A stretch of DNA of 40,758 nucleotides. Source: a virus. Position numbers and translations under genes: made by a program. The notes beneath the pieces are model-generated. The model did not search any database, was not told the DNA's origin, and saw nothing but the letters and a program-made list of their open reading frames with translations. The DNA lies in UHGV virus genome UHGV-0121884. The stretch is one strand, 5' to 3'. Each line of letters opens with the position of its first letter. Position 1 is the first letter of the stretch. Positions 1 through 40,758 of this stretch are shown one piece after another.

Positions 1-134
1 TCGTCGCGCCGTTTGGCGATATGACGGTGAAATGCCATCAGCATTATTACATCACTACATTACCGGGCAGGCAGTGGCCAAAAATTGAGGCATTTATTAC
101 TTGGTTAAGAGAACAGGTAAAAACCACTTCATAA
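1..134 (+). CDS. dsdC: 3' end of host LysR-type regulator gene (dsdC-like), partial at window edge
   Basis: Frame open from window edge (codon phase from nt 3) to TAA at 132-134; translation ...VAPFGDMTVKCHQHYYITTLPGRQWPKIEAFITWLREQVKTTS matches my recollection of the E. coli DsdC C-terminus; lies outside the att core at 234-248. Confidence 0.45.
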   Translation, partial: VAPFGDMTVKCHQHYYITTLPGRQWPKIEAFITWLREQVKTTS

Positions 135-233
135 TGAATAAGACCACGAGTTCCTGGTGTGCCTTATTCGGCATTGCTAGTGCGAATTTAATAATTTACG
201 GTTTTTACGTGGTTTTAGGGATAAACACAAGAA

Positions 234-248
234 TGGTGTCCCCTGCAG
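234..248 (-). other. attachment-site core: 15 nt identical to the 3' end of a tRNA (T-stem end + acceptor strand + discriminator + CCA), probably tRNA-Arg argW; left prophage boundary
   Basis: Minus strand reads CTGCAGGGGACACCA; no complete tRNA upstream of it, so this is the partial duplicate expected at the distal end of a tRNA-integrated prophage; flanked by imperfect inverted repeat CCCCTGCAG..CAGCAGGGG (240-270). Confidence 0.45.
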
Positions 249-321
249 ACATCTACTTGAAGCAGCAGGGGATTGATTGGAATGGTGTTTTTTAGATGTG
301 AGAAATATTTTACCCGCTATT

Positions 322-522
322 TTACCCATTGGCGCGGCTTAAGAGCTTATTTTTGAATTCACAATGGTCACGATATAACCATCTTGCTCGACCGTGGATA
401 ACTTTGGCTTTTGGCAGGTCGCCGGACTTAATCCGGTCGTAGATGAAGGTTTTACCAAAGCCAGTATCAGCCATGATGAATTTCAAATCAACCAGGGAAT
501 CAGGCTGTAGTTCGTGTTGCAT
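322..522 (-). CDS. AlpA-family HTH protein, putative excisionase (Xis)
   Basis: 66 aa; pattern LVDLKFIMADTGFGKTFIYDRIKSGDLPKAKVIHGRARWLY fits AlpA/Xis winged-HTH signature (TG..x..IY..IK.G.FP..K.G....W); GGAG 9 nt upstream of ATG; first gene inside the prophage end. Confidence 0.55.
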   Translation of the reverse strand: MQHELQPDSLVDLKFIMADTGFGKTFIYDRIKSGDLPKAKVIHGRARWLYRDHCEFKNKLLSRANG

Positions 523-582
523 GAGTGCTATCTCCGAATAGGGAATCGAACCTGCAAATCAGGTAATAAAAAACCGCCATCA

Positions 583-747
583 GGCGGATTGGTGTTCTTT
601 CAGTTCTTCAATTCGAATATTGGTTACGTCTGCATGCGCTATCTGCGCCCATATCATCCAGTGGTTATAGCAGTCGTTGATGTTCTCTGCTTCGATAACC
701 CTGTTGAATGGCTCTCCATTCCATTCACCTGTGACTTGGAAGTGCAT
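583..747 (-). CDS. small hypothetical protein (55 aa)
   Basis: ATG at 747 preceded by GGAG; followed by hairpin CCGCC-ATCAG-GGCGG plus T-run (rho-independent terminator, approx 575-600). Confidence 0.3.
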
Positions 748-804
748 TTATCATCTCCATAAAACAAAACTCGCCGTAGCGAGTTCAGATAAAAGAAATC
801 CGCA

Positions 805-1605
805 TTAAGCGGCGTCGGTGAATTCAAATAAAAAACCGGCTTGCGCCGGCTCTCTCATCTTTCTGTCTACCCATGCTGATATCGATGGCGGGTGCACCTT
901 TTCAATAGCAGCGCGAAGTACAGCTGTACGTGCCAGTTTGTCGGTAATCTCAGGAAATCGCTTCTCTGTCTTCGGTACGTTAACAGCAACATTAGTAGAA
1001 TCCGCACTGGCGAACGGATACATACCAAGAACTCTCACGTCGAGCATTCGAAGACCATGAATTTTCACTTTCAAATTACGATTGATATAAAGTTCAGTGA
1101 AAACTTCATCCATTCTCTGTTCCCACCATTTAGAGCGTATGTGCCTGTGTGGGCCGCAGCATCCAATCGCCACCCATTCAAATTTGCCAGAAAGGCGTAA
1201 AAGACGTTCAATTGATTCGTCGGTATGCCAGACAGGAACCGCTTTTGATTTTAGCCAATCAGGAACACACTCAATCTGCTCGTCGTTTTCTGCCTCTGTC
1301 CCTTCGATAACGTCAGGTATAAGAAACCATTCAATTCTGCTGAACCACTTCCCAACAAAGTCGTAGAATTTTGCTCGTCTCTTACTCCAGTCTACCGGAG
1401 TGCCTTTCTTTAATGCTTTCATCCAGTCGCTAAAAGCGCCGTTATCAAGGCGTATATCACAAGGGAACATGGCAATCTTTTTCATCTGCTCTGGTCTGGC
1501 AAATGAAACAAAAGCCCCACCATCACGGTAAAGGGCTTTAATCAGCATATCTGTAGGGGCATGCTCATCCCCCCATATTGGGCTGCCGTGAAAGTGGATG
1601 GTCAT
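805..1605 (-). CDS. hypothetical early-left accessory protein (266 aa); possible TGT/DpdA-like fold (speculative)
   Basis: Long ORF co-oriented with early-left operon; motif order LDNGAFS .. IPDVIEG .. VAIGCCG .. IHGLRMLD loosely resembles tRNA-guanine transglycosylase TDSGGFQ .. IIQG .. AVGGL .. MGVG; no zinc-site cysteines seen. Confidence 0.45.
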   Translation of the reverse strand: MTIHFHGSPIWGDEHAPTDMLIKALYRDGGAFVSFARPEQMKKIAMFPCDIRLDNGAFSDWMKALKKGTPVDWSKRRAKFYDFVGKWFSRIEWFLIPDVIEGTEAENDEQIECVPDWLKSKAVPVWHTDESIERLLRLSGKFEWVAIGCCGPHRHIRSKWWEQRMDEVFTELYINRNLKVKIHGLRMLDVRVLGMYPFASADSTNVAVNVPKTEKRFPEITDKLARTAVLRAAIEKVHPPSISAWVDRKMREPAQAGFLFEFTDAA

Positions 1606-37472: not shown

Positions 37473-37512
37473 CTACCTGCACGAAAAGTGTAGGTCAATA
37501 ACCAACGCAACG

Positions 37513-37537
37513 ACCCAGCTTCGGCTGGGTTTTTTTA
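37513..37537 (+). terminator. rho-independent terminator after ant
   Basis: ACCCAGC-TTCG-GCTGGGT followed by T7. Confidence 0.6.
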
Positions 37538-37594
37538 TGCCCAAAATTCACCGTAGCCATGCTTCGGCGATTCCTTGTATCTGGAGCAAATTAA

Positions 37595-40540
37595 ATGACA
37601 GACATTACAGCCAATGTGATTGTATCGATGCCTTCGCAACTCTTCACTATGGCGCGTTCTTTTAAAGCCGTAGCTAATGGCAAAATTTATATCGGTAAAA
37701 TTGATACTGACCCTGTAAATCCTGAAAACCAGATTCAGGCTTATGTGGAGAACGAAGACGGTTCTCACGTTCCTGTTTCTCAACCAATCATCATTAACGC
37801 TGCTGGATATCCTGTATATAACGGACAGATTGCCAAATTCGTTACCGTGCAAGGCCATTCTATGGCTGTTTATGATGCGTATGGTGCGCAGCAGTTCTAT
37901 TTTCCTAATGTGCTGAAGTATGACCCAGATCAACTACGGCAGCAATTAGAAGACCCAGATGGAGCGAATAAATACCCAAAACTTCAGATAGCAAGATGGA
38001 GAGACAGTTATGATGTAAGAGGTTGGGGGGCTATTGGTGATGGTGTTCATGATGATACATCAGCTCTATCAGAATTACTTTCTGTTGCAACAGGTGGTGA
38101 AAAGATAGATGGGCGAGGGCTTACTTTTAAAGTATCAACTCTTCCAGATGTCAGTCGATTTAAAAATGCTCGTTTTTTATTTGAGAGAATACCGGGTCAG
38201 CCTCTTTTTTATGCTTCTGAAGATTTTATCCAGGGAGAGTTATTTAAAATTACAGATACACCGTGGTACAACGCCTGGACGCAGGATAAAACGTTTGTAT
38301 ATGACAATGTCATCTATGCGCCTTTTATGGCTGGAGACCGCCATGGTGTAAATAACCTCCATGTTGCATGGGTTCGCTCAGGAGATGACGGGAAGACCTG
38401 GACAACGCCGGAATGGCTTACAGATTTACATGAAAACTATCCCACAGTTAACTATCACTGCATGAGTATGGGGGTTGTCAGAAATCGCCTTTTTGCTGTA
38501 ATTGAGACGCGGACCGTGAGAGGAAATAAACTGCAGGTTGCAGAGTTGTGGGATCGCCCAATGAGTCGCAGCCTTCGCGTTTATGGTGGTATAACGAAAG
38601 CAGCAAATCAGCAAGTCGCTTATATTCGCATTACTGATCACGGATTATTTGCTGGTGATTTTGTCAACTTCTCAAACTCTGGTGTTACAGATGTTACCGG
38701 GAATATGACGGTGACTACTGTTATTGATAAAAATACCTTTACAGTTACGACGCAAAATACCCAGGATGTGGATCAGAATAACGAGGGTAGATACTGGAGT
38801 TTTGGCACATCATTTCACTCGTCACCATGGAGAAAAACCAGTCTTGGAACTATTCCTTCTTTTGTTGACGGAAGCACTCCTGTTACTGAGATTCACAGTT
38901 TTGCGACGATTAGCGATAACAGTTTTGCTGTTGGCTACCATAATGGTGATATTGGTCCACGCGAGCTTGGGATACTCTATTTCTCTGATGCTTTCGGTTC
39001 TCCTGGTAGCTTTGTTCGCAGACGCATACCTGCAGAATATGAGGCGAATGCATCTGAGCCATGTGTAAAATATTATGATGGCATTCTGTATCTGACGACC
39101 AGGGGGACATTAAGTACTCAACCCGGTAGTTCATTGCACAGAAGCTCTGATTTAGGTACATCATGGAATTCTCTTCGCTTCCCAAATAATGTTCATCACT
39201 CAAACCTTCCTTTTGCCAAAGTTGGCGATGAGCTGGTTATTTTTGGCAGTGAGCGCGCATTTGGTGAGTGGGAAGGAGGAGAACCTGATAACCGTTATGC
39301 AGGAAATTATCCAAGAACATTTATGACCAGAGTTAACGTCAATGAGTGGAGTCTGGATAATGTAGAGTGGGTTAATGTTACTGATCAGATTTATCAGGGC
39401 GGAATAGTTAACTCTGCGGTTGGTGTTGGTTCAGTTTGTATCAAAGACAACTGGCTGTACTACATTTTCGGTGGGGAAGATTTTCTAAACCCATGGAGCA
39501 TAGGGGATAACAACAGAAAATATCCTTATGTTCACGATGGTCACCCGGCTGATTTGTATTGTTTCAGGGTGAAAATTAAACAGGAAGAATTTGTTTCAAG
39601 GGATTTTGTCTACGGAGCCACTCCTAACAGAACGCTTCCTACTTTTATGTCGACGTCAGGCGTGAGGACGGTTCCTGTACCCGTTGATTTCACAGATGAT
39701 GTTGCCGTCCAGTCACTGACTGTCCATGCAGGTACATCAGGACAAGTTCGCGCGGAAGTCAAACTTGAGGGTAATTACGCCATTATTGCGAAGAAAGTAC
39801 CGTCTGATGATGTTACCGCTCAGAGATTAATCGTTAGCGGCGGTGAAACAACGTCTTCAGCAGATGGTGCAATGATAACGTTGCATGGTTCCGGAAGCAG
39901 TACTCCACGTCGCGCGGTATATAACGCACTCGAACATCTTTTTGAGAACGGAGATGTTAAACCTTATCTTGATAATGTAAATGCTCTTGGTGGTCCGGGA
40001 AACAGGTTCTCGACAGTTTATCTTGGCTCCAATCCTGTGGTTACCAGTGACGGAACATTAAAGACAGAGCCGGTCTCTCCTGACGAAGCATTGCTGGATG
40101 CCTGGGGTGACGTCAGGTATATCGCTTATAAATGGCTGAACGCTGTCGCTATAAAGGGGGAAGAAGGGGCGAGGATACATCATGGTGTAATCGCGCAGCA
40201 ACTTCGTGATGTTCTTATTTCTCACGGACTCATGGAAGAAGAAAGCACAACATGCCGCTATGCCTTTCTTTGCTATGACGATTATCCCGCAGTATATGAT
40301 GACGTCATTACTGGCCAAAGGGAAATGCCGCTGACTGATAATGACGGGAGCATCATTGTTGATGAGGATGATAATCCAGTGATGGTAATAGAAGACATCA
40401 TTGAGCGCGTTGAAATAACGCCAGCAGGATCTAGATGGGGGGTCAGACCTGATCTCTTATTCTATATCGAGGCGGCATGGCAGCGCAGAGAAATAGAAAG
40501 AATAAAAGCTAGGTTAGACTTAATAGAAGGGAAGCACTAA
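37595..40540 (+). CDS. tailspike: P22-type head-binding domain fused to endosialidase (endo-N-acetylneuraminidase) with C-terminal intramolecular chaperone domain
   Basis: 981 aa; N-terminus [57 protein letters not shown] matches P22 gp9 head-binding domain; C-terminal 164 aa (from Ser818, motif SDGTLK) matches K1-phage endosialidase chaperone domain; GGAG SD. Confidence 0.85.
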
Positions 40541-40693
40541 ATGTTTCGTTGGCGTCAAAAATATGAACTGCTCACATAAAGAAGTAAGTACATTGGCAAA
40601 AAACATTGACGTCAACGAAATTAAATATAAAAATTTAAATGCTTTTTAATGACAAGAAAAGTAACTAGTGGTAAAATAACGTAGGATACTAAC

Positions 40694-40758
40694 ATGTCAA
40701 GACTCAAGACTCAAGACTCAAGACTCAAGACTCAAGACTCAAGACTCAAGACTCAAGA
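40694..40758 (+). CDS. neuO: 5' end of neuO-like polysialic acid O-acetyltransferase gene (partial, runs off window)
   Basis: ATG 40694 with AGGA 7 nt upstream, immediately followed by AAGACTC heptad repeats encoding (SRLKTQD)n, the known neuO 5' architecture; acetyltransferase body not in window. Confidence 0.6.
   Translation, partial: MSRLKTQDSRLKTQDSRLKTQ
40697..40758. repeat. tandem heptanucleotide repeat (TCAAGAC / AAGACTC), at least 8 full copies, truncated by window end
   Basis: Perfect copies at 40697, 40704, 40711, 40718, 40725, 40732, 40739, 40746 plus partial ninth copy. Confidence 0.9.

Follow-up and report, generated by a model that had tools for sequence, protein, structure and literature searches.

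The first 560 nucleotides of the stretch of viral DNA that we analysed (40,758 nt in total, referred to as the window) were best explained as the attR end of a P22-like, CUS-3-related prophage located in the 3' end of argW. The recombination module was of the KplE1/HK620/Sf6 type, with IntS as integrase and TorI as excisionase, and a second tRNA-like fragment at positions 542-557 lay outside the crossover. We assigned this reading as a whole a probability of about 0.8. The junction itself was an ordinary, previously described argW junction of a CUS-3-like prophage, and little about it was new. Accordingly, the main inference of a first-pass annotation made from the sequence was right but not novel, since the core, the sharing of the module and the int/xis layout had already been published (PMC2951348, PMC8787464). 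The single new point concerned the tRNA-like snippet upstream of xis, which is conserved as an element of the phage and may be bound by a protein.

On the host side, window 1-134 (plus strand) contained the 3' end of dsdC, as the first-pass annotation had proposed. The reading frame closing at position 134 (stop codon 132-134) ended in EQVKTTS and was annotated as dsdC in the matching genomes. Positions 135-231 represented the host argW-dsdC intergenic DNA, i.e. the native sequence downstream of argW, and were matched by empty sites. The reverse complement of window 234-248, CTGCAGGGGACACCA, was an exact match to positions 61-75 of argW, the argW sequence being taken from the tRNA-Arg annotation of two E. 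coli genomes. This segment had been recognised as a partial distal copy of the core without a full tRNA, and indeed ARAGORN reported no tRNA cloverleaf or contiguous tRNA in the window, where the tRNA-derived sequence was confined to two pieces, 15-17 and 16 nt long and apart from each other. The true identity at the junction was 17 nt long (window 232-248, minus strand; CTGCAGGGGACACCATT) and consisted of argW 61-75 plus 2 nt. It was common to attB (the empty site), attL (the argW-proximal junction of the lysogen), attR (the window) and attP (the HK620 virion DNA), and these four sequences diverged on either side of it as predicted for Campbell-type integration. Alignment to empty argW-dsdC sites, which had been suggested as a check, covered window 1-248 and broke at 248/249. 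A chance resemblance of the two argW strings was ruled out by the shuffle counts, in which 0.04 and 0.02 hits with at most 2 mismatches were expected versus one exact hit for each string, and by the fact that all the remaining exact argW matches across the 40.7-kb window were no longer than 11 nt.

It has previously been reported that the core of this module was 16 nt long, CTGCAGGGGACACCAT (PMC2951348), and that the att site of Kapi1 was 17 bp long (PMC8787464). We found CTGCAGGGGACACCAT(T) at the junction with the argW-flanking host DNA (window 232-248). Across relatives the core followed the pattern [G(A/G)(T/C)GT(C/A)] TGCAGGG [GAC(A/G)CC], in which 7 central nt were flanked by imperfect inverted repeats. 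The central T:A was replaced by C:G in the lineages of Edwardsiella and Pantoea, and the change occurred on both sides together. From this alignment we infer that TGCAGGG (247 to 241, minus strand) is the overlap region and that the flanking repeats, predicted in the window as GATGTC (253 to 248) and GACACC (240 to 235, both on the minus strand), are the core-type half-sites of IntS. Strand exchange would thus take place inside the 17-nt identity, with these 7 nt as the probable exchange point.

Strain Ecol_AZ162 (NZ_CP019015.1, 2700-2830) carried at this site a different element with a P2-family capsid gene, for which the host break position was identical and the tRNA identity was longer, 21 nt (ATTCCTGCAGGGGACACCATT). 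Additionally, in viral-contig records (L040, L043, L044 and others) the same xis, P arm and core ended in ...GGGGACACCA or ...GGGGACAC, and the sequence that came next, about 100 nt downstream of xis, was of at least five different kinds, which may be host flanks, tandem islands or variant P' arms.

No integrase gene was present within the window, in line with the earlier statement that none would be found at this end. The right end of the window consisted of the tailspike gene followed by the AAGACTC repeat of neuO; positions 40696-40758 stopped inside this heptanucleotide repeat, and nine copies were visible before the window end. It had been predicted that int was located at the other prophage end beyond neuO, and a search for the matching core copy and int at the right end had been recommended. 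Both were identified in NZ_CP082774.1, which was 100% identical to window 1-900 and also held the last 700 nt of the window. The far end of this prophage contained yfdC, argW (tRNA-Arg), intS, neuO (acyltransferase) and the tailspike gene, with attL on the argW-proximal side. Therefore, the integrase was at the opposite end, beside the regenerated tRNA. The attL of this genome carried the five published TorI pentamers and the arm-type sites. The placement of attP between int and xis was borne out by the HK620 virion DNA, where the order was int, attP core and hkaC (xis), and the same core was annotated, with int on one side and xis on the other, in the records of HK620, Sf6 and Kapi1. In the literature, the module was described as common to KplE1, HK620, Sf6 and CUS-3, with an autoregulated intS promoter that sits within attL (PMC2951348), and the location of int and xis at opposite prophage ends was already spelled out (PMC8787464).

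In the free phage, the early-left genes are followed by the terminator, a T-loop-like box (the conserved part of the 542-557 fragment), xis (torI), the P arm with arm-type sites and the core, and after the core come the P' arm, which contains the int promoter and five TorI sites, and then intS and neuO. The exchange leaves intS beside the regenerated argW at one end, and xis, the P arm and the core beside dsdC at the other. The attP junction predicted by this layout was ...AGTAGATGTCTGCAGGGGACACCATTTATCAGTTCG..., with xis inside the circle. Within the P arm of the window, putative IntS arm-type repeats GGGTAAAA were located at 308-315 and 320-327 (minus strand); they were assigned by sequence match alone and were kept in all relatives compared. 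A TAAA-containing arm-type motif has been described for the P' (attL) sites (PMC2951348). Moreover, a 135-bp KplE1 attR was sufficient for in vitro excision with IntS, TorI and IHF (PMC3509656), and the primer sequences from that study mapped its equivalent onto window 211-345 (minus strand).

The sole gene between the two tRNA-like fragments was an ORF of 66 aa at 322-522 (minus strand). It corresponded to torI, which encodes a recombination directionality factor and is equivalent to hkaC of HK620 and gene 18 of Sf6. The protein matched PDB entry 1Z4H, 'Tor inhibition protein', over its full length (E = 6.6e-43) and was 100% identical by tblastn to E. coli loci that carry the name torI, a label that was found in thousands of genomes. 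The first-pass annotation had described the interval as containing only an AlpA-type xis. The single gene was confirmed, but 'AlpA-type' was a loose label since the Pfam Phage_AlpA model (PF05930) scored 12.7 bits versus a cut-off of 21; HTH_17 was likewise below threshold (16.9 versus 27). In published alignments TorI was nevertheless counted among the winged-helix factors, together with AlpA, Vis and Xis (PMC8844411).

The leader of xis was located at 523-541 (minus strand), with a Shine-Dalgarno GGAG at 535 to 532. Just upstream of the xis region there was an intrinsic terminator at 568-587 (minus strand; stem 587-574 plus a T run), which was common to lambda-type phages and marked a mosaic boundary. 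Altogether, three terminator-like hairpins were present on the xis strand within 900 bp (568-587, 767-786 and 830-855, minus strand), and the scan of these 900 bp returned 4 such hairpins on both strands versus 0.8 expected in shuffles. A simple scan of the xis strand produced no consensus sigma-70 promoter ahead of xis at its threshold. The hairpins and the absent consensus promoter fit the published control of excision through synthesis of the excisionase, with IntS being constitutive at a low level and the torI promoter described as uncharacterised (PMC2951348). Excision would require TorI, and in the prophage xis would probably be transcribed only if early-left transcription is antiterminated or if a weak promoter that depends on an activator is active. 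A Rho-dependent terminator was reportedly placed upstream of torI by Menouni in 2013, in a study of Rho-dependent termination and KplE1 maintenance.

Among the known systems, KplE1 (CPS-53 of E. coli K-12) had the same argW-dsdC insertion site, the same core and the same P-arm arm-type repeats, and its intS and torI were at opposite ends as well. The solved TorI (1Z4H) was the structure matched at full length by the window protein. K-12 matched window 1-572 at 96.7%, box included. However, KplE1 is a 10-kb defective remnant, whereas the window belonged to a P22-like prophage of about 40 kb with different DNA upstream of position 572. HK620, Sf6, Kapi1 and others were 96-98% identical over window 232-627 (to 801 for Sf6), the range for HK620, Sf6 and Kapi1 being 97-98%. 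Their order of int, attP core and xis was annotated, and the box fell within the sequence that their annotations give as pI promoter or boundary. Since these records were free-phage genomes, the core was flanked there by the P' arm and not by host DNA; the tailspike and conversion genes also differed from those of the window.

CUS-3 from E. coli K1 RS218 (CP000711) shared with the window the neuO gene with its AAGACTC repeat, the argW insertion beside dsdC and the endosialidase tailspike (99% identity over window 37498-40758). Nevertheless, megablast against CUS-3 matched 19,626 of 40,758 nt (48%) at 85-99% identity: the tailspike/neuO end was at 99%, the head genes were at 94-95%, and much of the early region was unrelated. 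Thus, the window was probably a mosaic relative of CUS-3 rather than CUS-3 itself. Moreover, the CUS-3 deposit, unlike the window, ended at the box and lacked xis.

The boundaries of that deposit deserve attention. The record (CP000711.1) started with TTGCAGGTTCGATTCC followed directly by TGCAGGGGACACCATT..., with positions 1-16 labelled 'attL core', and ended at a copy of window 542-557 labelled 'attR core' (40192-40207). No TorI-like ORF was found in the deposited record. In UTI89, where the prophage end was 100% identical to CUS-3, torI was located 20 bp past the deposited end and was followed by dsdC (UTI89 681-900). The record had taken the TTGCAGGTTCGATTCC repeat as the att core, and therefore xis was left out. 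The circle junction implied by the deposit was ...GATTTGCAGGTTCGATTCC-TGCAGGGGACACCATTTATC..., also given as ...GATTTGCAGGTTCGATTCCTGCAGGGG..., without xis. We considered it next to impossible that this 16-nt repeat was the real att core of CUS-3 and that xis was outside the phage, although the record annotated the repeat as both cores. The empty sites broke at 248/249 and not at 541/542, and the box, xis, the core and int were contiguous in virion genomes. The phage as deposited would have no excisionase, while torI sits 20 bp away in UTI89. Additionally, recombination at the 542-557 repeat would have left a hybrid scar (the 5' part of argW, the box and torI), and none was detected in 5,426 complete E. 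coli genomes. CP000711 ended at the wrong repeat; boundaries copied from it are about 310 bp short, and the core of the family lies about 310 bp further on.

The upstream fragment itself was correctly traced by the first-pass annotation to the adjacent T arm of argW: the reverse complement of window 542-557, TTGCAGGTTCGATTCC, was identical to argW positions 46-61. It was neither part of the crossover site nor a displaced half of an att site. The fragment included the conserved box GGTTCGATTCC (552 to 542, minus strand), and inside this box was a TorI-type pentamer GTTCG (551 to 547) that was oriented like the sites in attL. In HK620 and Sf6 the fragment fell inside the annotated 'pI promoter'. 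The HK620 annotation and the alignment with HK106 and ev099 placed a cII-box-like sequence, TTACCTGATTTGC (TTGCCTGATTTGC in HK620), at 554-566 (minus strand), where lambda-type phages have their pI cII box TTGCGTGTAATTGC after the same terminator. In lambda, the pI/cII box occupied the same position directly after this terminator and contained a partial TTGC repeat; however, int was adjacent to xis, attP was beyond int, and the T-loop-like box was lacking. The first 4 nt (TTGC) of the 16-nt tRNA match coincided with the second repeat of the cII-type box, and other lineages had CCAGG, ACAGG, GCCGG or ATAGG at this position. These four bases were probably derived from the neighbouring cII-type box, and the portion truly common across lineages was CAGGTTCGATT(C/T)C. 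The fragment was a conserved stretch of 11-14 nt that copied the argW T-arm/T-loop, CAGGTTCGATTCC, 29-30 nt upstream of the xis start, and it marked the left edge of the conserved recombination module.

The box was present in the virion genomes of HK620 and Sf6 and in 80 of 80 near-identical modules from viral contigs, where it was located behind at least three different terminators. We also compared diverged TorI relatives (60-92% protein identity) from Enterobacter, Citrobacter, Serratia, Pantoea, Edwardsiella and viral contigs. At 33 of the 49 distinct loci, the 60 nt upstream of xis contained a match of at least 9 of 11 nt to GGTTCGATTCC, compared with 0.5% of control windows, and the distance from the box to the ATG was 29-30 nt in 26 of these 33. 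Lineages with unrelated upstream DNA became alignable exactly at the box. Across 10 lineages the identity was 0.91 in the box, 0.33-0.44 in its flanks, 0.59 at third codon positions of xis and 0.87 at first and second positions, the value for the box being inflated because this sample was picked by the motif. Tandem duplications of the box were identified in L136, L137 and L139 (upstream of xis, at about 2440-2500), L133 and L015 (e.g., CAGGTTCGATTCCCGTCAGGTTCGATTCCC), with a spacing of 12, 13 or 16 nt. On the other hand, the box was absent from 9 of the 17 protein clusters and was cleanly deleted in L019. Among the 80 near-identical E. coli modules it was polymorphic at 4 of 11 sites (all rare alleles), as much as the third positions of xis; since this was not below synonymous sites, the constraint test within E. 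coli was uninformative.

Two candidate features around the box were rejected. The possibility that the RNA of the xis leader forms a hairpin or mimics a T arm was discarded because RNAalifold predicted no conserved pairing around the box in the 10 lineages; a 4-5-bp stem was possible in a few of them but was not conserved. A second TorI-like half-site over the Shine-Dalgarno ([GA]T[TC]CG-GAG, about 12 nt past the box) was seen in several lineages, and it was inseparable from an extended ribosome-binding site.

Several explanations can be considered for the presence of this tRNA-like fragment next to xis. The first-pass annotation suggested that xis was inserted into a single tRNA copy. Under this model, an uninterrupted stretch of 31 nt or more from the 3' part of argW would originally have been present in attP, and insertion of a 293-bp xis cassette would have given the pieces at 542-557 and 234-248. 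The two pieces were indeed on the same strand and in tRNA order, and they abutted in tRNA coordinates with a 1-nt overlap. However, the relatives kept a T-loop-like sequence of their own next to the core (TTCGATGTA). In most diverged relatives this was ATTCGATGTA, which resembled a T loop except for a conserved block of 3 mismatched nt and in the P arm was contiguous with TGCAGGGGAC. Thus, the T loop was represented twice in the module and was not split; judging from the alignment, the E. coli type AGTAGATGTC would be a decayed version of this core-adjacent segment. Moreover, the arm-type sites required by the core would have to have arrived with the cassette, and the unsplit arrangement (terminator, contiguous T arm, acceptor and P' arm) was found in 0 of 50,697 phage records. 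In other lineages, the match of the upstream piece was limited to 9-11 of the 11 nt of the box and to 14-17 nt of the T arm; part of the 16/16 match in E. coli was due to the TTGC of the cII-type box. The claimed insertion was therefore unsupported and quite improbable. The alternative origin offered with it, an older att or tRNA-derived remnant, fared somewhat better but was still rather unlikely. Here, the fragment would have no function and would be left over from an earlier attachment site or a captured tRNA end, inherited with the module between the terminator and xis. Its tRNA derivation was clear (13-14 nt of consensus identity to the argW T arm), and it was dispensable in vitro, missing from many lineages and polymorphic within E. 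coli. A relic, however, would not be expected to surpass the neighbouring non-coding DNA and the synonymous sites so clearly in conservation across lineages at about 60% third-position identity, to keep a fixed distance to the ATG or to undergo independent tandem duplications.

It was also unlikely, slightly more so than the relic, that the fragment was part of a cII (C1)-activated promoter of the pI type and that its tRNA likeness was incidental. HK620 and Sf6 were annotated in this way, and lambda-type phages had the genuine pI cII box at the same place behind the same terminator. Nevertheless, TTGC-N5-TT[GC]C occurred only in lineages with the lambdoid terminator context, while the box was kept behind unrelated DNA too. 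The box would occupy the spacer, which is normally without sequence constraint, and the simple scan found no promoter there. Additionally, a start upstream of xis would yield Xis along with Int during lysogenisation. We tentatively favoured, at somewhat less than even odds, a role of the box as a candidate operator for the module's own proteins, TorI or IntS, which would provide feedback on xis expression. This reading was preferred because the box held GTTCG in the orientation of the attL sites and also GATTCC, an attB-type (B-type) half-site under the inferred core model. Five TorI sites with the cores GTTCG, GATCG and GTCCG were reported in attL (PMC2951348), and the relatives that keep attP showed GTTCG repeats in the P' arm. 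Several observations spoke against an operator. The 135-bp attR fragment of PMC3509656, which excises in vitro, did not include the box. The spacing of the duplicated boxes was unlike the 10- and 20-nt spacing of the P'-arm TorI sites, and those sites were GTTCGC while the box had GTTCGA. The loss of the box in the clusters and in L019, its polymorphism in E. coli and the motif-chosen sample also counted against it. A bolder and more doubtful version of the operator would be that TorI reads the tRNA T-loop itself, as GTTCG corresponded to T54-A58, the core of the T loop in argW. The near-exact T-arm copy 30 nt upstream of xis might then serve as the operator for feedback by TorI or by IntS (through GATTCC), and the T loop in attL/attB might act as a hitherto unrecognised sixth TorI site flanking the core. 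A conserved box with a TorI pentamer by xis was in any case a concrete and cheap target for finding out how the excision switch is set.

Beyond the recombination module, Pfam gave no matches for the neighbouring ORFs at 580-747, 805-1605 and 1648-1932. The ORF at 805-1605 (minus strand, 266 aa) showed 97.7% DNA identity with HK106, where its RefSeq name was 'queuine tRNA-ribosyltransferase'.
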